DNA from: Piedraia hortae CBS 480.64
Lineage: Eukaryota
DNA: 51,104 nucleotides
NCBI GenBank assembly: GCA_010093745.1
Contig: MU005959.1
Location: 62,001 to 113,104, forward strand
Direction of reading: 5' to 3'
Shown here: positions 3,772 through 45,001 of the stretch, piece after piece
How the letters are laid out: every line of letters starts with the position of its first letter
Position numbering within the stretch: the stretch's first letter is position 1
Program-made: the position numbers and the translations under genes
Notes under the pieces: generated by a model
Database searches by the model: none
What the model saw: only the letters and a program-made list of their open reading frames with translations
What the model was told of the DNA's origin: nothing

Positions 3772-4791
3772 TATGTCGAGGGAGAGGGGGGAGAATGGGG
3801 CCTTTTAATGGGGTAGGTGCTGGGGCAGTGACTGGTTTTTGTGGAAGTTACCTTGAGGGGTCGGATTGATAGTTGAAGACTGGGTTGCTTAGTGGGTACG
3901 AGATAGGGATTCAGGGGTTGTGAATGTGGAACGTGATGCTTTGGCTTTTTGCGGTATAGTGTACTACTGTGTTACGATGGGTAAGGTGACTGGATAGCTG
4001 AGATGTAATTGATCAGGTCGAGTTGATATCATGGTTTGTGCGTTGGTTCTCTGATACTAGATCGTGGAACTGGTTTGGTTTATAACTGTCAGATACCCAC
4101 TGGTCGATAGATTACCGAGCGATATGGAATTTTAATTGGTGATGTGCTGTGTCGTTCGTTCACAGGCTAGTTCCAAGGGAGTTTTTGTAGATTCAGTGCT
4201 TACTGGCAAACCTGAAGAGGCTGGTAGTGTTTGAATAGAGAAGGGGCCGTATCGAGCGAGCCAAGACAAAGGTATAAATGCTAGGAAGTTGTTTTGTAAC
4301 TGATGATCAAGAAACTAGGTATCTTCGCTAGTGAGACTTTACATATCCACTGGCCCGACGACAGACCTTTTCAACATCAAATGAGACCAGCACAAGGATG
4401 AGCGTAAGGGTAAAGAGTGAAGTGCAGCAGGATGTTCACTTGGAACCTAAGCACCTGTGCCGACGACCACCAAGAGATTGACGGCAGCTGATCTATAACT
4501 TTCAAACCCCTTCACAATTATCTCCTCACTTTTGCACATACACTAGCATTGTCCCAATGTCCACCAATCGCTGTGCATCATCTCGCTTTGCAATGGGATG
4601 ACAAGAAGAAAATTGAGCAGATGAATTTGTAATTCTACAAAATATCTGGTTTACGGAATTTGCTCAACAGCACAGTGATAGGAGCTCAACTTAACTGTTC
4701 TCCTATCAAAGATGTGTAACTTTTACAGGAAGTGATTCTGTCGGAAGGATGTGGCACCCACCATGACCAGAACTTTAGCTAGAAGTCGAAA

Positions 4792-4836: not shown

Positions 4837-5481
4837 GGTCGTTGTATCGTTCATGCTTAAGGGCATGGTTCGCTGACGTTGTCCTAGCGAATGCAGTTAG
4901 ACTGAGGTAGTGTGGAGAAGGTTTCGAAACTCATCTCACATAGAGATAGACATCTACATTCACTTTTTGGTCAGAGTTGAGTGCACACATTTGTCTTTGA
5001 CCTACTTCCCGCTTATTTCTCGAAGGTTCACCCCTCCGACAGGTCCCCTCTAAAGAGAACGTCAGATATATTTATGCGGAATCTTATCATTTCGAAACAA
5101 AAATCTCTGAATATGAAAGCTTTCCGAGATGGAATATTGACAATCGCCTATGTGGAAAAATTGTGCCTTCCCTCTTAGGGAGTTCAACAAAGATATAGTT
5201 GGATGGTGTCAGAAGTCTGCCGCTTGCAGAAGGATTGTTGAGACCGAATCCGTCTCCGAATAAGGAGATGATGATATGAAAGGATTTGAGGACAAAGTCC
5301 TCTCATTTATTCAGTCAGGAGGGTTTCCTCCCAGAACATCATTCATCCAGAGATGTTCACTTTGCTCTCTGCTGAGTTATGAGTTCTCTCCTCCCCCTCT
5401 GACAGATGGTGTCTGACGGGAGGAGACCAGTCACTGATCCAAGCTAACCGGAGACATGCAAAAAACAAGGGCCATTAGAAT

Positions 5482-5600
5482 ACGTACAGCAGCGGGGATT
5501 CCCGCGTGGTCACCCACCGTAGTACTAATCCGCCGGTTTGAAGATTAAGTTCAGGAGAGCGGACGGGATCCTCTGTTCTCTGCAACCTATGGCCGTACGT
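5482..5600 (-). rRNA. Dispersed 5S rRNA gene
   Basis: Reverse complement reads ACGTACGGCCATAGG...ATCCCGTCCGCTC...TTAGTACTACGGTGGGTGACCACGCGGGAATCCCCGCTGCTGTACGT (119 nt, complementary ends); a T6 terminator follows at about 5465-5460. Confidence 0.93.
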
Positions 5601-10324: not shown

Positions 10325-10406
10325 CGACACCGATGGGACTCGAACCCACGATCTTTGCCAGTTCCTGTTACCGGAAAGCAACGCCTTACCATTAGGCCAC
10401 GGTGCC
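10325..10406 (-). tRNA. tRNA-Arg(CCG) with 10-nt intron
   Basis: Reverse complement GGCACCG TGGCCTAATGGTAAGGCG TTGCT TT-CCG-G[TAACAGGAAC]T GGCAA AGATC GTGGGTTCGAGTCCCAT CGGTGTC G; T-run terminator downstream. Confidence 0.9.
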
Positions 10407-35290: not shown

Positions 35291-36590
35291 TCATTTCAAA
35301 TGAGGAGGATCCTTAAACCAGTCCAACTCAAGCGCTTGCCTTGCCGAGATGCGCTCACCGGGCTCCAGCCGCCGTGTCTTAGCAAACAGCTCCCCTGCCC
35401 TGCGGAATACCTGGAGCGACAGATTCTCCCACTTTGGACCACCAAAACTCCCACAATACCTCCATATGAGGGCATTCATGCTATCAGGTTCATCATGGGT
35501 TGAATCCTCGTCGTCCAAATCCTTTTGGTGCAATTTCCTCTGCCAACGGACAGGGAGCCGTTCATGGCGATCTTTGATCTCGGCACCGCAGAGCGCATCT
35601 TGACCCAACAACGGCGAGTTGATTAGAAGCACGAAAAACTATTGACTTGAGCTTGCTGGAGTGTCAGAAAGATGGAGCCACATACCAACATTCCAGCACT
35701 CCACATTTCTATTTTCTCGTCAAGTGTCGCCAAAGTCCATCTCTGAACCACGCCAGATGGGAAATAATCTGAGATCGGCTGGCAGAGAAGACATATAAAA
35801 CGCATGTCCAAAGCCTGTGAGCTTGCTATCGTCCTCGTCCAGAACTTGCGTGGAATGATAGCTATGCCCCACAAGATATCTTGGCACAGACCCTGGAAGA
35901 GGGGTTCCGTCCTGGCTCCTCATTTCGAGGCTTTCCTCACTACGAAAGCAATGCGAGAACTCCTCTTCTGTAAGGTCAATGATGCCGCGCGCTGTCCATA
36001 CGAGATTGTCGGGATACGATTCGCCATGCACAGTGCCGTGTAGGTACAAACAGTCAACCGCATGCAGAACTTGGTGATGGAGTCCTCTGGTGGAACTGGC
36101 TTTGAATCGGTTATGATCAGCATTGAAAGGGCTCCAGTCTTTCACGAAATGCTGTCGGGCGGAAACACCATAAACATCAGTCACGGTGCAACGGTGTGTC
36201 CCATTTGGCCCCACAAGCTCAAAGTCTTTAAGATCGTAAAATCTTTTAAGATCCCTGCCTCTATGCTTGACGGAGGATTTGCAACGAGGATCTTAATCGC
36301 CACGAGCCTTGGCTTCCTGCAGATTCATGAGCTTATTCAGAGGACAGGATAGCAAGTGGAGGATCAACTCTTCATCTCTCGCTGCAGACAGTTGCAAAGG
36401 ATCCGAAGCCTAGTTTGTGCAATATTCTGTAACGCCCGTTATGCAGAATGTCCTCGAGATGCACGGGGTGAAACTCGTCCGGGGCATAGCGTCGGACGCT
36501 CTCACAGCTGGGTAAATCACACGCATAGGAAAAACGGTGAGGTCCCTTGTCCGCCACCAGGTTTCGATTTGTAGGTGATTGAGTAAACAT
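35291..36590 (-). pseudogene. SRPK/Sky1-like (CMGC) protein kinase pseudogene
   Basis: YAPDEFHPVHLEDILHNGRYRILHKLGFGSFATV, GPNGTHRC, VPRYLV, EMWSAG and LEPGERISARQALELDWF lie in separate frames; catalytic motifs degraded (VHGESYPDN, LTGFG). Boundaries approximate. Confidence 0.85.
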
Positions 36591-37370
36591 TGTTGCAGGG
36601 TAGTTTCGAAGAGCAATTTGAGGCGTGCGTGTTGGCCGCAAGATTGAGCGCACATTGGCACGGCGGTACGGCTGCTGCAGGTCGGAACCCTCGCAAGTTA
36701 CGAAGATTTGCGAGTTATTGTCTGCCACCCAGTTTTGGCAAGGTTTACGCTAAACAGAGGTCCATGTATTAGTGTCTCATTAGCGTGTCCTATTTGGGCG
36801 CGACTTTTCGACTGTCGTTCCGCCCCGCTCCCTTCCAGCGCTAGCAAGGGACCCTGTATCAGTTGCATACGCCAGAAAAGTCTGTATCCGTAACGCGGGG
36901 TTCCCCATGCTGGCCCACCACGTCCCCACTCTCATTCTTTTTCTCCTAAAACACCATGGAGGGAAAAACACACTCTGAAGAAAGTATGACAATACAGAAC
37001 GATACCAACAAATTGCCTGTTCTTACGTCAAGACACAATGTTGCTGGCCGCGTGGTGGCCATAAGCATGGAGGCCACCCCCGGTGAGTTTCCGGCATACC
37101 AGTCGGCCGTGGAGGCAACTTTAGAGGCCCTGGAGGATCCTGAGCTTGTTAAATACACTCGGGCATCTATAATGTAGTATTACAATGTCGACTACAAAGT
37201 TACCTGGTCAATAGCAAGATGCCTGGGTACGCCATGGTGAAGAGATCCCATGTCATCATCAAGTTGTACACCGACGATGCGGAGGAGCACCCGACTACCC
37301 TGTGCGTGAAACTCACATACTTCTATGCAGGACGCAGACTCTTTACGACTGAAAGGGCTGTTGGAGAAGT

Positions 37371-37717
37371 TGTTGGATTCAAGCACCGCCGCTAGCGCGT
37401 ATGCGGGGCAGTTGCATAGCAAGTCAGCGATACCTCCTACACTACCAGCTGCACCCTAGGTTTTTTCCTTCACAGAGTTTTTCCCCTCAGGGTCATGTCA
37501 TATGTGACATGGCTAATGCACCCTGCAGGTGTGCAACGTGACGTCACCGGCCCACCGGTACAGAATTTTTATAGTTATAGACACTGTCGTATCGACACTG
37601 GTATTGGCTCATATCCATCTGTATCTGTCCTGTCCCTGTTGTCGATTTTTGTCTATCGCTTCGTCCTCTTGGTTCGGGCCGCTGCGCACTCCCATCCATG
37701 AAAGCCCTATCACTACA
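37371..37717 (+). mobile_element. Solo/chimeric LTR of the copia family, inverted relative to the full element
   Basis: Begins TGTTGGATTCAAGC; the first about 200 bp are near-identical to the reverse complement of 38611-38808; ends ...CACTACA, with a 10-bp terminal duplication to 37727. Confidence 0.9.
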
Positions 37718-37899
37718 TATCACTACATGGTCAACGTTCTCGTCCAACGCCCCGCGGACCGTCGGTCAAATGTTGCATATGGCCAGAGCTTCAGAATATA
37801 TGCTTTGAGTCCTCGTTGCTCGCCCCATGCAGAAAATCAGCCTCTTTATACAGCATTCGTCTCGGGTTCGACGGACGTTATAAATGGGTGGGACAAGGC

Positions 37900-38035
37900 T
37901 ATGGTGAGCTTGGAGCATGTCGAGACCAACAGAGCCAGGAAGAAGTGGGACGACAAATAATACGGCCCCTACCAAGTCCTACAGGCATACCGAGGAGCAG
38001 TAACGGTCAAACTGCAATCAGAACACGAGTTTAAT
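37900..38035 (+). pseudogene. Ty3/gypsy integrase C-terminal (GPY/F) relic
   Basis: Translation VSLEHVETNRARKKWDDK*YGPYQVLQAYRGAVTVKL resembles the T.RP.KKLD.K..GPY.I motif of fungal gypsy integrases; contains an in-frame stop. Confidence 0.6.
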
Positions 38036-38219
38036 GACAGTTCAAGGCTTCGATGGCGCAGCTACAACACCAAAATGCTCAATGAACGATCATCTCTGTA
38101 CAGCCGCCAACAGTGTTCGTCTCACAGAATGCGCAAGCCTCGGTCATGGCAGAGGGCGCATGTGCCTCCAAGTCACTCAACGCAGTGAGAGGTGAAGTCC
38201 AGCAAAAACGAGACGTAAC

Positions 38220-38398
38220 ACCGTAGAGATTGGCAAGCAAGATATTCTGAGCTAAACCCTTTCGGGACTTGGGGAGCAAGCTGCGACCAATAGCATGCGG
38301 GAGCCCCGCCTGGATGTCGACGCCCATTGGTGTAATTTCACTCTTCCCCATTCCAATTAAGCTTAGCTCAGAATGTCTTGCTTGTCAGTCTCTACGGT
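38220..38398. repeat. 36-bp inverted repeat with 107-bp spacer
   Basis: ACCGTAGAGATTGGCAAGCAAGATATTCTGAGCTAA (38220-38255) versus TTAGCTCAGAATGTCTTGCTTGTCAGTCTCTACGGT (38363-38398); three mismatches. Confidence 0.9.
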
Positions 38399-38445
38399 AA
38401 TCGATCTACATATATCTATGTAGAGCATATTTACATCCCTACTTC

Positions 38446-38808
38446 TGTAGAGATTTTAGCTCCCGTGGGTGAGATTGCGCAGCGACCCGAAGAGGACGGA
38501 GCGATAGACAGAATCAGTGACAGGACAGATGTAGATGTATATGAGTCAATACCAGTGTCAAAATGACAGTGTGAATGACTATCTATCTCTACGAGGGGAC
38601 GTCAGAATCAAAATTCTGTACCGGTGGGCCGGTGACGTCACGTTGCACACCTGCAGGGTGCATTAGCCATGTCACATATGACATGACCCTGAGGGAAAAA
38701 ACTCTGTGAAGGAAAAAACCTAGGGTGCAGCTGGTAGTGTAGGAGGTATCGCTGACTTGCTATGCAAGTGCCCTGCATACGCGCTAGCGGCGATGCTTGA
38801 ATCCAACA
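38446..38808 (-). repeat. 3' LTR of the copia element (363 bp, mosaic)
   Basis: TGTTGG...CTACA in element orientation, directly after the PPT; contains the ENE-like motif (38687-38725), a CATGTCA/TGACATG hairpin and a GTGACGTCAC palindrome. Confidence 0.93.
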
Positions 38809-38818
38809 GTCCCCCTCA
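38809..38818 (-). other. Polypurine tract of the copia element
   Basis: TGAGGGGGAC immediately 5' of the 3' LTR TG in element orientation. Confidence 0.85.
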
Positions 38819-38849
38819 AGCAAGGTGCTAGCAGGCAAGTTGCGGAAGG

Positions 38850-38970
38850 AGCAAGATAGTCAGTGATATGGTGCTGCGAAAGCAAGATATCAGTGAGTAT
38901 GATGCGTGATTAGCAAGATGGTCAGCGAGACGGTGCCGAGAAGGCAAGATGTTACTGAGCATGGTGCAGG
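38850..38970. repeat. Four degenerate 31-bp tandem units in the copia 3' UTR
   Basis: Units start RGCAAGAT at 38850, 38881, 38912 and 38943, each followed by a TCAGTGA-like and an ATGGTGC-like block. Confidence 0.75.
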
Positions 38971-41900
38971 GCTAAACTGATGGCTGAAGCGAGCCTTTGC
39001 AAGGTTGGCTTGGGCAGTGCCTTCGTACAGATGTCTGCGAGGTTAATATTGGAGGGAGTGTGACTTACCACAAAACTCTTTCCGTTGTGGTCTCGAGCGA
39101 AATGGTAGTGATAAGCAATATGCTTGATCTTGGTGACGCTCTTTAGACCATTTATCAAAGTGATAGCCGCTTCATTGTCGAGGAGGAGTTGGTAGCGATC
39201 CAAGTCCCATTCTTTGGATGCGGGGATCAGTTCGTGTAGGCCGTGACGGACCCAGACGAGGTGGCTAGCGGCATTCGAGGCGGCCATGTACTCTGCTTCG
39301 CAGGTAGATTTGCCAACGTCGGATTGCCGGGAGCTGTGCCATGAAACGACACATTTTCCTACGAGGAGTAAATACCCGGCGTAGGATTTCGATTCCCAGT
39401 CCGAGAGCCAAGACGAGTCCGAAAACATCTCTATAGACGTATCGGTGCGTCGAATGGGGTATCGGAGTCGGTAATCGATGGTAGCCTTTAGGTACCGAAG
39501 AGTCTGGTTGACAAGTCCCATGTGTGCCTTTCCTGGGCGGGAGCTGAAAGCGCTGAGACGAGCAATCGTATATGCTAGGTCTGGGCGGGTTCCAGTAACA
39601 AGATAATTTAGTGAACCGATCTTCTGCTGGTAAAGGCGCACGTCGGCCAGGGTTTCATCACCACCGAGAGGTTCGGGCCGGCTGTTTGGGTCCATTGGTG
39701 TCATTCGCCCATTGCATTTTGACATGCCGAAGCGTTCCAACACTCGCTTGGCATAATCTCTCTGCGATATCTCGATGGTGGTCGGCGTGGTGGAGATTTC
39801 CAGGCCCAGGAGGTATTTGGCTGGGCCAAGGTCTTTACACTTGAAGGTGTTGCTCATGATTTCCTTGAAGGCTGTGACCGATTCTGGGTCCCCCACAATC
39901 AGAAGATCGTCGACATAGATGCCGATGTAAATCTTTTGATTAGTGTGCGTGAAGATGCACGGGTCCAGTCTTGTCTGTTCGTAGCCTTGTTGCTGGAGCT
40001 TTGAGGAAAGTGTTCCGTACCACTCTCGTCCAGATTGTTTTAGCCCATATATAGCTTTGTGTAGTCGGACCAGACCAATCTCGAATGTGCCTGGTGGCGG
40101 TCGCATATAGATTGTGTGTGACAGGGGCGCATTGAGGTATGCCGTGTCAAAGTCCATCTGATGCGGCACAAAGTTGAATTGGGCGGCTAGCGCAAGGAGA
40201 AGTCGCAGGGAGTCGAAGCGAGCAACTGGTGCGTAAGTTTCGGTGTAGTCAATTCCTTGAATCTGAGAAAATCCTTGAGCTACAATACGAGCCTTATGTC
40301 GAACCAAGTTGCCTTCGTGGTCAAACTTTTTAGCAAAGACCCATCTGCTCCCAACAATATTCTGGTCGACCCGTTCTGATGCTGATGACCATGTTCCATT
40401 TATTTCATGTGACTTTAGTTCAGTCTCCATGGCTTCTTGCCATTTGGGCCATTCCGAGGAGTTGCGAGCTTGGTTGTACGTGGCCGGAACGTCGTTGTCT
40501 AGAGCGGTAAGGGCAAAGTCTTCGAGCTCGATGTCGGTTGCGGTCATGGCAGCATCGGCTTGTTGCTTTCGCAAAGTTGGCTTGACTATCCGGCCTGATC
40601 GGGTAACAGTTGGCCTTGGTTCGTCTTCCGGAGAGGTGTCGACGTCCATATCAGCCGGTGGTGGGGATGTGCCGCGATCTAGCTCCGGCGATAGAGAAGT
40701 TTCTGGCTGAGCTGCTGGCTGAGTTGCCGGGGTTGTTGCCGGGGTTGTTGCCGGAGTTGATGCTGGAGTTGATGCAGTCGCAGAGGGTGAGTGCGCCTGG
40801 AACGGCGGAAAGGTCACGTTCTGTGACTGGATCAAAGCCTTGCGGTCCGGAACGTAGACCTTATAGATTTTTGTGCTCAGACCATATCCGACAAGGATGC
40901 CATCCTCCGCTCGCCAGAGAGCTTTGGAATCTGGTGCTCGGGCCTCTTTAGGGATGTGAACAAAACAACGTTGGCCGAAAGGGTGAAGGTGCCCGATAGT
41001 AGGGAGTTCGCCGGTTAGGGCTTGGTGTGGCGTTATCCGATCTTGTAGCGAAGAGTGCGGCTTAATGTTGCGCAAGTAGACTGCTGTGTTGATGGCTTCA
41101 GCCCAAAGCTTGAGGTGCGAGTCGTCTTGGATCATGGCCCTCATATCGTCAGTGATGGTGCGGTTGTAACGCTCTGCTACCCCGTTTGACTCATGATGGC
41201 GAGGAGCAATGGGCTCCCACTTAATGCCGTTTCTCTTGAGGATGTCGCGAGAGATCATGTACTCGCCTGCGTTGTCAGACCTGAATCGTTTAATTTTTCG
41301 GTCATATTGAACATCCACGAATGCCAGAAAGTCGCGGATTTCTGCTTTGGTGTCATCCTTTTGCTTGAGAAACCGAACCCAGGTATATCGGGTGTAATCG
41401 TCAATGAAAGTTAGGTAATATCGAGAGCCGCCGATCGACGGAGTCGCAAATTTTCCAGAGAGGTCCGAATGAATTAGTTCAAACGGTCGTGTAGATCTTC
41501 GGTACATTAATGACTTAGGTTTGTGGTATGTGGCCTTCGCTCTGGCGCAGTCGTCACAAAAGAAGTCCTTGGGTTTTGGTGGCACAAGGCTTCCATCGGC
41601 AAAGACCTTGGTAGGCAACTCAATGTTTGCGTGACTGAGGGCTTCGTGGAACTCTCTGTATGAGGAGAAGGATGCGTTGTTGGCTACCGCGCAGCTATCT
41701 TTTACCTGGACGAGGAATCCGCCATGACTGTACTTTCCCCAGATGATATCTACTCCGTCCTTGGATAGGTGCACATTGTCCCCAGTCCCCCTGAGCTCGA
41801 TGCCAACAGAGCGAATCTGCGGCCAGCTAAATAGGCGGGTCGTGTTTAGCTCGCTACTATAGAGGACGTTTGACAGCATGATGGTCTTGGTTTCTCCGTT

Positions 41901-42128
41901 GGGGAGCTTTGAGAGGAGTTTGACGGATCCTATGCCTTCTACGTTGAGTCTTCCCCCGCCGGCGACGCGAATGAAGCCCTGGTATGGCTTGAGATCAGTG
42001 AAGTCGTCGCGGCATCCTGACATGTGCTTGGTCGCTCCGGTATCGAAATACCATGCGGGCTGGGAAGGAGGGAGCTCGCTGAGGAAGGCGACATCAGCGA
42101 TCAGCGCGATAATCTCCTCGTCAACGGC
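38952..42128 (-). CDS. pol: Copia Pol (protease-integrase-reverse transcriptase-RNase H), uninterrupted
   Basis: PR WYFDTGATKHM; IN HEALSH...CDDC, LIHSDLSG, RSDNAGEY, SNGVAERYNRT; RT HQMDFDTAYLNA, YGLKQSGREW, YVDDLL; RH FSDSSW, STCEAEY, DNEAAI, NLADICTK. The frame is open from the codon after the gag TAA. Confidence 0.95.
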   Translation of the reverse strand, partial: AVDEEIIALIADVAFLSELPPSQPAWYFDTGATKHMSGCRDDFTDLKPYQGFIRVAGGGRLNVEGIGSVKLLSKLPNGETKTIMLSNVLYSSELNTTRLFSWPQIRSVGIELRGTGDNVHLSKDGVDIIWGKYSHGGFLVQVKDSCAVANNASFSSYREFHEALSHANIELPTKVFADGSLVPPKPKDFFCDDCARAKATYHKPKSLMYRRSTRPFELIHSDLSGKFATPSIGGSRYYLTFIDDYTRYTWVRFLKQKDDTKAEIRDFLAFVDVQYDRKIKRFRSDNAGEYMISRDILKRNGIKWEPIAPRHHESNGVAERYNRTITDDMRAMIQDDSHLKLWAEAINTAVYLRNIKPHSSLQDRITPHQALTGELPTIGHLHPFGQRCFVHIPKEARAPDSKALWRAEDGILVGYGLSTKIYKVYVPDRKALIQSQNVTFPPFQAHSPSATASTPASTPATTPATTPATQPAAQPETSLSPELDRGTSPPPADMDVDTSPEDEPRPTVTRSGRIVKPTLRKQQADAAMTATDIELEDFALTALDNDVPATYNQARNSSEWPKWQEAMETELKSHEINGTWSSASERVDQNIVGSRWVFAKKFDHEGNLVRHKARIVAQGFSQIQGIDYTETYAPVARFDSLRLLLALAAQFNFVPHQMDFDTAYLNAPLSHTIYMRPPPGTFEIGLVRLHKAIYGLKQSGREWYGTLSSKLQQQGYEQTRLDPCIFTHTNQKIYIGIYVDDLLIVGDPESVTAFKEIMSNTFKCKDLGPAKYLLGLEISTTPTTIEISQRDYAKRVLERFGMSKCNGRMTPMDPNSRPEPLGGDETLADVRLYQQKIGSLNYLVTGTRPDLAYTIARLSAFSSRPGKAHMGLVNQTLRYLKATIDYRLRYPIRRTDTSIEMFSDSSWLSDWESKSYAGYLLLVGKCVVSWHSSRQSDVGKSTCEAEYMAASNAASHLVWVRHGLHELIPASKEWDLDRYQLLLDNEAAITLINGLKSVTKIKHIAYHYHFARDHNGKSFVVSHTPSNINLADICTKALPKPTLQRLASAISLALHHAQ

Positions 42129-43043
42129 TTACTGGGCATTAGCAGATGCTGGGCGGGGAGGACGCACGGGGTTAGTTTGCGGCTTGCTCACGCGGTTACC
42201 GTCGCTGCGAAACTGTTGGAGTCGGCGACAGTTGCGGTGAGTATGGCCTTTAAAATTATGCCCACGCGATTTGCACCAGGTGCAGTGATCGCCCTCATTC
42301 GACCGCTTATTCTGATGGTGCTTGGCCTTATGGCGATCGGCTGTTGCCGTATGCAGGGCCATGTTGGGGGGCTCGCGGACAGTTTCCCGGTCCAGCATAT
42401 CTTGGAAGGGGTCCTGTAGCGCAGTGAATGAGACAATGCCCTGCGTGTGGAGATTGTGAACAAAGTTGTCGAGGGAGGCAGGGAGGGTGTTGATGAAAAA
42501 TGCCCCCTTTACAATGTCGCAGTCGAATGTATTGCGCAGAGCCTTAGCGACCACGTGCTCCGAAGAGGCGCACCGCATTTGCATGCGGCTCCAGAGGTTA
42601 TGGAACTTATCCATATGAGCCTGTAGTTCGCCGAGACTGGTGCCTTCGGCAAAGTGGAGGGTCATGATGGACCGGCAAAGCGAGGTCGTGTTGACGCCAC
42701 TGTCCTTGTCGAATCTCTTGGCCAGCTTGGTCCAGGCATCATGGGAAGTGGCAGTATTGTCAAGCAGCTCGTTGGCCGAGGTTGATACTGCGCTATACAG
42801 CATCATGCTCGCCTTCGAGTCTTTAGCTTCCCATGAGGAAAAGCTTGGATCATCATGGTCAGGTTGGGCGAATTCGCCGGACACAACGTCCCAGACGTCG
42901 TCAAACTTGAAAGCCTTGGTCCAGGCATTTCTCCAGTTATGGTATTGCTCACCCTTAAGGTTAAGCTGGGGCAGGCGGTTCGGATCGACTTTGAACGACC
43001 CTTGCCAATTCTGGCTGGTATTGCCTCGATTTGTGCGCGGCAT
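42129..43043 (-). CDS. gag: Copia Gag
   Basis: ATG (MPRTNRG) at 43043; L.GEQYHNWR...VWDVVSG, AWTKLAKRF gag motifs; Cys/His knuckle CTWCKSRGHNFKGHTHRNC; ends TAA 42131-42129 in frame with pol. Confidence 0.9.
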   Translation of the reverse strand: MPRTNRGNTSQNWQGSFKVDPNRLPQLNLKGEQYHNWRNAWTKAFKFDDVWDVVSGEFAQPDHDDPSFSSWEAKDSKASMMLYSAVSTSANELLDNTATSHDAWTKLAKRFDKDSGVNTTSLCRSIMTLHFAEGTSLGELQAHMDKFHNLWSRMQMRCASSEHVVAKALRNTFDCDIVKGAFFINTLPASLDNFVHNLHTQGIVSFTALQDPFQDMLDRETVREPPNMALHTATADRHKAKHHQNKRSNEGDHCTWCKSRGHNFKGHTHRNCRRLQQFRSDGNRVSKPQTNPVRPPRPASANAQ

Positions 43044-43099
43044 TGTCGATGAATTAGGTCGGTTAGCTAGGTCAACTTGTCCGGGGTTGCAGGCCACCC

Positions 43100-43111
43100 G
43101 GGCTCATAACC
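43100..43111 (-). other. Primer-binding site of the copia element
   Basis: GGTTATGAGCCC directly after the 5' LTR, the internal initiator-tRNA-Met (half-tRNA) type PBS typical of copia/Ty5-like elements. Confidence 0.85.
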
Positions 43112-43472
43112 TGTAGGTATTTAGCTCTCGTGGGTGAGAGTGCACAGCGACCCGAAGAGGGCGGAGCGATAGACGGAAACAGGGACAGGAAAGATGTAGA
43201 TGTATGTAAGTCAAAATACCAGTTGCAGCATGGTAGCGTGAATGACTATTTTTCAATAAGGGGACGTTCAGAATGAAAATTCTGTTCCGGTGGGCCGGTG
43301 ACGTCACGTCGTACACTAGCGGGGCGTATTCACCATGTCACATATGACATGACCCTGAGGGAAAACCTCTGTGAGGCAAAAACCTAGGGTGCAGCTGGTA
43401 GTGTAGGAGGTATCGCTGACTTGCTATGCAAGTGCCCTGCATACGCGCTAGCGGCGATGCTTGAATCCAACA
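43112..43472 (-). repeat. 5' LTR of the copia element (361 bp)
   Basis: TGTTGGATTCAAGC...ACCTACA followed by the PBS; ENE-like motif at 43353-43389. Confidence 0.93.
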
Positions 43473-45001
43473 AAGGCCGTGTTCGCCCTCCCGGCTGCAG
43501 GTGAAGTGGAGTCTAATACCCACCGACTTATATAAGTTTTGGGCAGTCCTAAACCACAGCACCTTGAGGCCTTTTTGCTTTGCCTCCTTTTCCAAGGAGA
43601 TGGTTGCTTGTGGGACCTATCTTGCGGGCCCCTTCTTTGGCTAGCGTGTGGGCCTCCTCGTCCTCTCAGAAGTCATCTCGTTCGCGAATACAGTGTGTTT
43701 CCAAGGGAAATGGGCCTTATAGACTTGCTTGCTAGAGTCCCGCAATGGCTAGTATATTGCGCCTTAAAATTAAGTAGAAATGCTGTTATACTTTCTCCCC
43801 CTTCCACACATATTCGTGGTGGATGCTGCTGACACGTGGCTCTCCCACTGCTGCTCGCGGAAGGCCTCAAGCTATCGCAGTCAACGAGATAGAATCGGCG
43901 GCTTCACGCCAAGAGAATCTGATTGGAAGAAGCTGACATATAAAAAAGGTGGGAGTGCGGAGCAAAACAGTGAAGATTGTGAGCTGCAGCACAATTGATT
44001 ACATCCGGCCGATTCATTTTCTTGGCACACTTTCTTGGCTTGTATATTACACATTTTGATGGAATTAAAAAGCTTGGCAAAATTCTCTTGATTGTTTACT
44101 GTGAGGTCTTTTTGACGTGCTACTTGTACTGTGGGTTTCAGCCACGAGGGCTTTTGACAGAATTATGATTCCGCTTGAAAAAGTTTTCTCGTCGGAAGAA
44201 CCCATCTAATTGAAAGGATTGTATCTGTGCAAAGTTTGTAATGTCTCTACGTACACTGCTTGTTCATTTGTAAGCTTGATGTGATTTAGCATCGCGTGCA
44301 ATGCAAAGATTTATCTGAAAGACTGCTATTCCTGCAAAGGGTGTAAACCTAGCGAGCTCTTCGCTACACAAAGTCTTCTCCTTTCTGGAAGTAAAATCTC
44401 AACCCTCATTTTCGACAGCCTCGCGCTTGATGGGCGCGAAAGATTGCTAAGTAACTGAAAACGAACCCCTAGTTATATGAAGACAGCCAGATGGAAACGC
44501 TATATTGTGCGGTCATAGTCTTTGGGTTTTTACGCAGCTCGTTTCAGCACAAAAGATCATCTAGCTATCAGTTGAAATGGAACCGGGAGATACGTGCAGA
44601 GAAACTGTTGGTGGGTTTATCTCTAATGCGGGGTTGCCACTATGTCCAAAAAACCATGGTGGGGTAAAGTCTACCTAGCCCCACATCTGCGTGTCAGCAG
44701 AGTTCTTATGACGGCACATTCAACACCAGACGGTTGCTTTTCAGTCTAGTGTTGCCCAAACTGCACCTCTGGGTCAAGATTTTTCTTGACGCCATGGGCG
44801 AAGCGGTAAGAACTTCTCCTACAGGCGCGTACTTATAGATTAGGTAAAATTGTCTGCGGGATATGCAGCCAGACGCGCTAAGACTTTACTGGAGCCAAGC
44901 ACGGGCGTTGATGCCTGAGCTTTCTTCCCTCATTCATTTCTGGCTTCATCATTCTTTTCCTTTAAAACTTACGTTCCCCCAGCAGACGTCTCTCAAGCAT
45001 C

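Follow-up and report, generated by a model that had tools for sequence, protein, structure and literature searches.

All three long terminal repeats (LTRs) of a Ty1/copia retrotransposon family in a 51,104-nt stretch of the Piedraia hortae genome (the window) carry a 37–39-nt motif in which two U tracts face each other between a lower stem and a small hairpin. We tentatively read the commonest, ancestral form of this motif, with confidence somewhat short of even, as a putative minimal single-domain ENE-like poly(A) clamp. In the available text of PMC7583470, an ENE is a stem-loop whose internal loop is rich in U and adjoins at least one G–C pair that permits A-minor contacts. The preliminary description of this DNA had noted that ENEs occur in the RNAs of plant and fungal transposons, and the accessible portions of three publications bear this out (PMC12501189, PMC13541005 and PMC7583470): about 200 such ENEs are reported, most of them tied to LTR retrotransposons (PMC12501189), and the legend of a 2026 review has some of them embedded in 5′ and 3′ LTRs (PMC13541005). 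The motif, if real, would be an added member of this published class, in which transposon ENEs, including LTR-embedded ones, have already appeared. Overall, we regard the ENE interpretation as plausible but unproven, with moderate support; the U3 assignment, the presence of the motif in RNA, the binding of poly(A) and an effect on stability are all points that we infer.

A Ty1/copia element and a solo LTR

The retrotransposon lies on the minus strand and encodes gag, protease, integrase and an RVT_2 reverse transcriptase in copia order, with Pfam matches in the copia frame to Retrotran_gag_2 (3.3e-15), Pol_BBD, rve, SH3_retrovirus and RVT_2 (4.8e-67). Together with this domain order, direct LTRs with TG...CA ends, a putative primer-binding site and a polypurine tract identify it as Ty1/copia. 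The gag frame (Retrotran_gag_2) occupies 42132..43043 on the minus strand, from its first ATG to an in-frame TAA at 42131–42129, and is followed at 38952..42128 (minus strand) by a pol frame comprising a protease barrel, integrase, RVT_2 reverse transcriptase and an RNase H region. A single in-frame TAA (42129–42131, minus strand) thus splits gag from pol. In the element's relatives the gag and pol domains lie on one protein of 1,350–1,550 residues, which suggests that the TAA is probably a defect, and this copia copy has probably been inactivated. Its nearest pol homologues among 5.8 billion proteins reach 46% identity at best, the named ones coming from Parastagonospora, Diplocarpon and Morchella, which identifies the host as one of the filamentous ascomycetes; the family therefore appears, at the level of protein sequence, to have no close sequenced relative in that collection.

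A blastn search of the LTR against the window returned exactly three copies, all of which contain the motif. The 5′ LTR (361 nt, TG...CA; 43112..43472, minus strand) has loose ends of read contigs at 43473, and the 3′ LTR (363 nt, TG...CA; 38446..38808, minus strand) has them at both 38446 and 38809. The third copy is a solo LTR of 347 nt (37371..37717, plus strand), inverted relative to the 3′ LTR and separated from it by 728 nt. Directly after the 5′ LTR, a putative primer-binding site, GGTTATGAGCCC (43100..43111, minus strand), could be read from the sequence, which may match the anticodon arm of initiator tRNA-Met, like that of Drosophila copia. At the other end of the element, the spacer that runs from the pol stop to the polypurine tract and 3′ LTR holds a tandem repeat of 31 nt × 3.3 with 74% matches (38850..38950, minus strand), and the polypurine tract itself, GAGGGGGA (38810..38817, minus strand), lies immediately ahead of the 3′ LTR.

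The target-site duplications in the 5-nt flanks of the full element are mismatched (GCCTT at 43473–43477 and GAAGT at 38441–38445), and the pentamer GAAGT recurs at the left-hand flank of the inverted solo LTR, whose flanks are at 37366–37370 and 37718–37722. We considered an LTR–LTR inversion as the cause of the common GAAGT; on this model GCCTT should form the right-hand flank of the solo LTR, but TATCA was found there, so that only half the model fits. Elsewhere in the window are a 5S rRNA gene (5481–5600, minus strand; 80.6 bits) and an 82-nt tRNA (10325–10406, minus strand; 55.9 bits), for which ARAGORN gave no anticodon, perhaps because of an intron.

Sequence and position of the motif

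The motif had been described as present in every LTR of the family, and we recovered all three copies (37–39 nt) with the positions and sequences given for them. Copy 1, in the solo LTR, lies at 37454..37492 (plus strand) and has U tracts of six and five (U6/U5) and a 3-bp upper stem; copy 2, in the 3′ LTR, lies at 38687..38725 (minus strand; LTR nt 84–122) and has U6/U6 and likewise a 3-bp upper stem; and copy 3, in the 5′ LTR, lies at 43353..43389 (minus strand) and has U5/U4 with an upper stem of CCUC/GAGG plus a G.U pair. On the minus strand, copy 3 is made up of a 5′ arm (43389–43383), a 5′ U tract (43382–43378), a hairpin (43377–43366), a 3′ U tract (43365–43362) and a 3′ arm (43361–43353). 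In element sense, copy 2 reads CCCTAGG, T6, CCTTC, ACA, GAG, T6 and CCCTCAGGG, and copy 3 reads CCCTAGG, T5, GCCTC, ACA, GAGG, T4 and CCCTCAGGG. Copy 1 differs from copy 2 by a single T-to-C change that ends the second T run, giving T6/T5 followed by CCCC. The motif is sense-oriented, with its U tracts on the sense strand of the element.

The distance from the pol stop to the motif, estimated earlier at about 230 nt, measured 227 nt from the end of the pol frame at 38952. The motif falls within the LTR's 5′ third, with another 241 nt of LTR after it, and because it is so far upstream of the LTR 3′ end it most likely belongs to U3. The RNA of an LTR element has the layout R-U5...U3-R, in which U3 sequence occurs only at the RNA 3′ end; the motif copy of the 3′ LTR should therefore sit in the 3′ untranslated region of the element RNA. 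This placement of two U tracts in an LTR part that would be present only at the RNA 3′ end also suits a different role in RNA, namely that of a U-rich upstream element that boosts 3′-end processing only at the 3′ LTR or, in a variant of the same idea, that of a site for a U-tract-binding protein, in either case without a triple helix. Upstream polyadenylation enhancers located in U3 are known in retroviruses such as HIV-1. However, by eye, the three LTRs hold no recognisable conserved AAUAAA-type hexamer downstream of the motif, and such a role leaves the enclosing stem and the G–C closure of the motif unexplained; we consider it improbable.

Predicted fold

The preliminary description had read a lower stem, opposed U tracts and an upper stem-loop from the sequence, and this arrangement was the minimum-free-energy fold of each of the three copies in isolation, consisting of a 7-bp lower stem with a bulged C, an internal loop formed by the U tracts and a small hairpin. 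The upper stem has only 3 bp in two of the three copies: the upper helix of copy 3 has 4 bp plus G.U, whereas in copies 1 and 2 the 3 bp include the G.U pair and enclose a 4-nt loop. In all three copies, two G–C pairs top the lower stem and a C–G pair closes the hairpin, and this matches the G–C pairs required beside the U-rich loop of an ENE (PMC7583470 and, from mutants of the Evade element, PMC12501189). The 3′ U tract is separated from the stem by one unpaired C, or by two in copy 1. At least five U on each strand and at least 4 bp in the upper stem occur together in none of the three copies, as copies 1 and 2 have U tracts of at least five but a 3-bp hairpin, and copy 3 has the longer hairpin but U5/U4.

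The stability of the isolated folds was unremarkable for copy 1 (−6.7 kcal/mol, z = −0.41, with 63 of 200 shuffled sequences folding as well) and copy 2 (−6.7 kcal/mol, z = −0.62; 49 of 200), and modest for copy 3 (−13.4 kcal/mol, z = −2.22; 6 of 200). Placed in its 328-nt LTR context, copy 3 kept pair probabilities of 0.93–1.00 with the U tracts fully unpaired, and copy 1 had pair probabilities of 0.26–0.46 in a 320-nt LTR context. For copy 2, the motif in the 3′ LTR of the one full-length element, the pair probabilities were 0.00 in the 472-nt context that runs from the pol stop through the 3′ untranslated region and LTR, where both arms pair elsewhere. Among the three near-identical copies, none of the 15 consensus pairs showed compensatory changes (covariation term of 0), and their consensus fold retained these 15 pairs but lacked the upper hairpin. 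The comparison with Rfam that had been proposed for the motif gave no support, as no Rfam 15 family matched at the gathering score or at E ≤ 10, including for 101-nt pieces.

The ENE reading offered earlier was thus sustained in its architecture, its sense-strand U tracts, its bordering G–C pairs and its position in the LTR. Counting against it are the lack of any copy with both long U tracts and a 4-bp upper stem, the loss of the fold in the 3′ LTR context, the lack of covariation and the lack of an Rfam match.

Rarity of the arrangement

To express how common the arrangement is, we used a descriptor, written after the motif had been seen, that calls for a T run of at least five, a hairpin of at least 3 bp, a T run of at least four and a lower stem of at least six pairs that ends in two closing G–C pairs and may contain a single bulge. 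On both strands of the window, this descriptor matched only the three LTR sites, and a looser version (T4/T4, five pairs) found nothing beyond them. Dinucleotide shuffles of the window matched at least once in 4 of 300 cases, with a mean of 0.013 matches per 51-kb window on both strands. A search of genome contigs with a pol alignment gave 26 distant copia loci with 26–38% identity and unrelated LTRs; these served as a background of real sequence, and in their 102,749 bases the descriptor had no match. The three copies of the motif descend from one ancestor and so count as one evolutionary event. The architecture is uncommon by this post hoc descriptor.

The contigs of these 26 loci (L002–L027) are filed as bacterial or archaeal metagenome-assembled genomes and most likely represent eukaryotic contamination of those bins. 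Searches of viral contigs and of prokaryote genome contigs with a 20-nt LTR word from beside the motif and with a degenerate motif pattern gave no matches in either set, and neither the pol protein nor a 13-sequence pol alignment found relatives in the viral contigs. A single metagenome match to the LTR word (L001) was an unrelated AT-rich stretch and was set aside as chance.

Copy number and the commonest form of the motif

Contigs from two public sequencing runs were placed on 36500–44500, one of them a DNA run (X1) and the other tentatively labelled as RNA. In this DNA run, the summed contig depth was about 3,900–4,300 over the 5′ half of the LTR, compared to about 12 over the internal region (38952–43103). 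With LTR depth so far above internal depth, the genome must hold hundreds of LTR copies, mostly solo, and the internal part is single-copy; the genome apparently holds one internal copia copy, and the family looks to have been once successful and to be now largely extinct.

The same depths bear on which form of the motif is typical. Depth in the DNA run was 9,020 at 43362, in the U5/U4 copy, versus 1,549 at 38696, in the U6/U6 copy, a roughly six-fold difference that makes the U5/U4 type the commonest motif form by read depth; a 3′ T run shorter by one T accounts for 10–14% of the depth at the U5/U4 copy. At 43377, 81% of the DNA-run depth has C (element sense) instead of the G of the window copy, and with this C the G.U pair is lost and a 4-bp CCUC/GAGG hairpin remains. 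Among the best 40 of 146 variant rows from the read contigs, this position was the best-supported variant within the motif, and the same 40 rows held no variant in the lower-stem arms. Because the commonest form is U5/U4, a typical family member would offer at most four U.A-U triples.

Next to the motif, at 43336–43352, an LTR variant carries ATGTCG/CGACAT in place of the hairpin arms ATGTCA/TGACAT, with both sides changed and the palindrome kept; this variant is the loose-end consensus, at 43363, of five contigs of the DNA run.

Conservation, duplication and palindromic boxes

U tracts and stems conserved no better than the neighbouring LTR had been named in advance as evidence against an ENE. 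This is what we found for the U tracts and upper stem, where conservation is lowest within LTR nt 1–122, but not for the lower-stem arms, which are invariant in all three copies. Copies differ from one another at 2.6–10.3% of positions in the motif, at 0–3.6% in the 83 nt upstream, at 3.8–16.2% in the next 80 nt downstream and at 20–41% in the rest of the LTR, and within the motif the differences concentrate in the U tracts and hairpin. Every change between motif forms adds a T to, or creates a T beside, a T run, a pattern that would fit slippage-type mutation. For the LTR as a whole, comparison of the 5′ and 3′ LTRs gave no differences in the first 83 nt and about 20% in the last 160 nt, a steep gradient that runs opposite to the usual pattern of a variable U3.

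In copies 1 and 2, each U tract together with the CCYUCA that follows it forms a 13-nt direct repeat at 17-nt spacing, with 85% and 92% identity, respectively (in copy 2, 38719–38707 and 38702–38690, minus strand), so that the two opposed U tracts represent a tandem duplication. No direct repeat was found in copy 3, and Tandem Repeats Finder returned no row for the motif of the 5′ LTR. The motif also contains palindromic sequence: the 3′ arm, CCCTCAGGG, is a 9-nt palindrome, CCTCACAGAGG in the centre is imperfectly palindromic, and CCTAGG occurs within the 5′ arm. More broadly, nt 61–215 of the LTR (38594–38748 in the 3′ LTR) contain 9–10 short palindromes compared to 2.2–2.4 in shuffles, none of 500 of which reached the observed number, and the motif opens this block. 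The part of the block 3′ of the motif (LTR nt 123–215; 38594..38686, minus strand) includes CATGTCA-TATG-TGACATG, the CRE-like GTGACGTCAC, ACCGG-CCCA-CCGGT and CAGAAT-TTTG-ATTCTG; the first of these is a 7-bp hairpin directly after the motif. If palindromic DNA sites are repeated in this way, the stems could be by-products, and RNA made from three related palindromic boxes spaced by T runs would adopt the observed fold without selection on RNA. An origin by duplication and palindromes is nevertheless compatible with a later co-option as an ENE.

These palindromes raise the possibility, which we hold to be only slightly less likely than an ENE, that the motif acts at the DNA level as a U3 enhancer: a dimeric transcription factor would bind the boxes CCCTAGG, CCTCACAGAGG and CCCTCAGGG, and the T runs would space them apart or keep nucleosomes away; as the boxes are complementary to one another, the RNA fold would then be a side effect. 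Consistent with such a function are the position of the motif at the head of a palindrome-dense region with a CRE-like site, the palindromes in both arms, the inclusion of the U tracts in a 17-nt tandem duplication, and a spacing between the arms that shifts by 2 nt between forms while the boxes are kept. In addition, the motif precedes a TGACTCA / TATACAT region (LTR nt 260–275) by about 150–200 nt, a position at which, from the established layout of promoters, upstream activating sites would be expected. Palindrome logic alone, however, does not account for same-strand T runs on either side of the central hairpin, nesting of this kind is rare among shuffles and among genuine copia sequences from elsewhere, and the sense orientation of the T runs would be a one-in-two coincidence. 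The present analysis assigned no known factor to CCCTNAGGG.

A motif of this origin might also have no function, being a neutral by-product of a duplicated unit of T run plus palindrome that came to lie near a third similar box and was carried along by a successful LTR. The 13-nt direct repeat at 17-nt spacing is what such a history would leave, and T-run lengths and the central hairpin vary among the copies and the read contigs, the folds of two of the three copies are weak, the fold is lost in context and there is no covariation. In a genome of tens of megabases, moreover, several chance cases would be expected at 0.013 per 51 kb. Nevertheless, we judge this explanation unlikely. The arms are invariant among the copies and free of variants in the best 40 of 146 read-contig rows, the motif falls within the best-conserved 200 nt of the LTR, and its position and strand suit a role in RNA.

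Last, the two levels may be combined, in that a duplicated palindromic U3 enhancer box was co-opted through its T-run spacers as a putative 37-nt ENE with four triples; we give such dual use little credence.

Comparison with known ENEs

Tycowski, Shu and Steitz reportedly surveyed ENEs in the RNAs of plant and fungal transposable elements in 2016 (Cell Rep 15:1266). Like the plant and fungal transposon ENEs of the accessible literature, the motif is a stem-loop with a U-rich loop bordered by G–C pairs, and it is predicted to lie close to the 3′ terminus of an intronless RNA. Most plant ENEs are double-domain according to the available text of PMC7583470, whereas this motif is single-domain and would form at most four triples in its commonest form. 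The ENE of KSHV PAN RNA likewise has a single domain with a U-rich loop between short helices, G–C pairs for A-minor contacts and, presumably in both cases, poly(A) as the partner. According to two sources (PMC7583470, PMC13541005), the PAN element has 79 nt and forms three A-minor triples in addition to five U.A-U triples. By comparison, the present motif has 37–39 nt, U5/U4 in its commonest form and a 3–5-bp hairpin, and it shows no similarity to Rfam covariance models.

Evade (Copia93) of Arabidopsis is also a Ty1/copia retrotransposon with a U-tract fold in its 3′ untranslated region, a position in RNA that is predicted in our case. In the available text on Evade (PMC12501189), the G–C pairs beside the U tracts are essential, the ENE protects against deadenylation by CCR4a, and it functions although it lies upstream of the 3′ LTR and so even further from the poly(A) site. 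The present motif differs in having its two U tracts inside the LTR, the spacer ahead of the LTR holding the 31-nt tandem repeat instead, and its role as an ENE is predicted, whereas that of the Evade ENE is experimentally proven. The ENEs of MALAT1 and MEN-beta resemble the motif in having a U-rich internal loop of the clamp type, but they bind an encoded A-rich tract in a blunt-ended triplex, according to the accessible part of PMC7583470, and no such tract is conserved after this motif. We considered a genomically encoded A-rich partner for the motif as well; none was conserved, and the only A5 run is in the 5′ LTR (43249–43253).

A possible poly(A) clamp and its meaning

In the mechanism that we tentatively favour, the motif, being in U3, would be transcribed only from the 3′ LTR and would lie in the 3′ untranslated region of the genomic RNA, with the poly(A) site at most about 240 nt beyond it. 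The acting form, a minimal ENE of one domain, would be U5/U4 with the 4-bp CCUC/GAGG hairpin. With the poly(A) tail folded back, its As would form Watson–Crick pairs with the 3′ U tract and Hoogsteen pairs with the 5′ U tract, for no more than four U.A-U triples in all, and neighbouring As would make minor-groove contacts with the two G–C pairs that top the lower stem. Such a clamp would be expected to slow deadenylation of the intronless RNA.

The readings differ in what they would mean. If the motif is a promoter module, it would warn that an ENE-like fold can arise from clustered palindromic sites spaced by T-rich sequence, and screens of LTRs by structure alone would give false positives. 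If instead it serves at both levels, it would indicate how small a poly(A) clamp can be and a simple route by which transposons acquire one, through duplication of a unit made up of a palindrome and a T run. If it is a true ENE, a fungal Ty1/copia family would join the transposons whose RNAs protect their own poly(A) tails, with an ENE that is very compact, confined to the RNA 3′ end by its U3 position and visibly derived from a tandem duplication, and this would help to explain how an intronless RNA escapes decay in fungi and how the LTR reached hundreds of copies.
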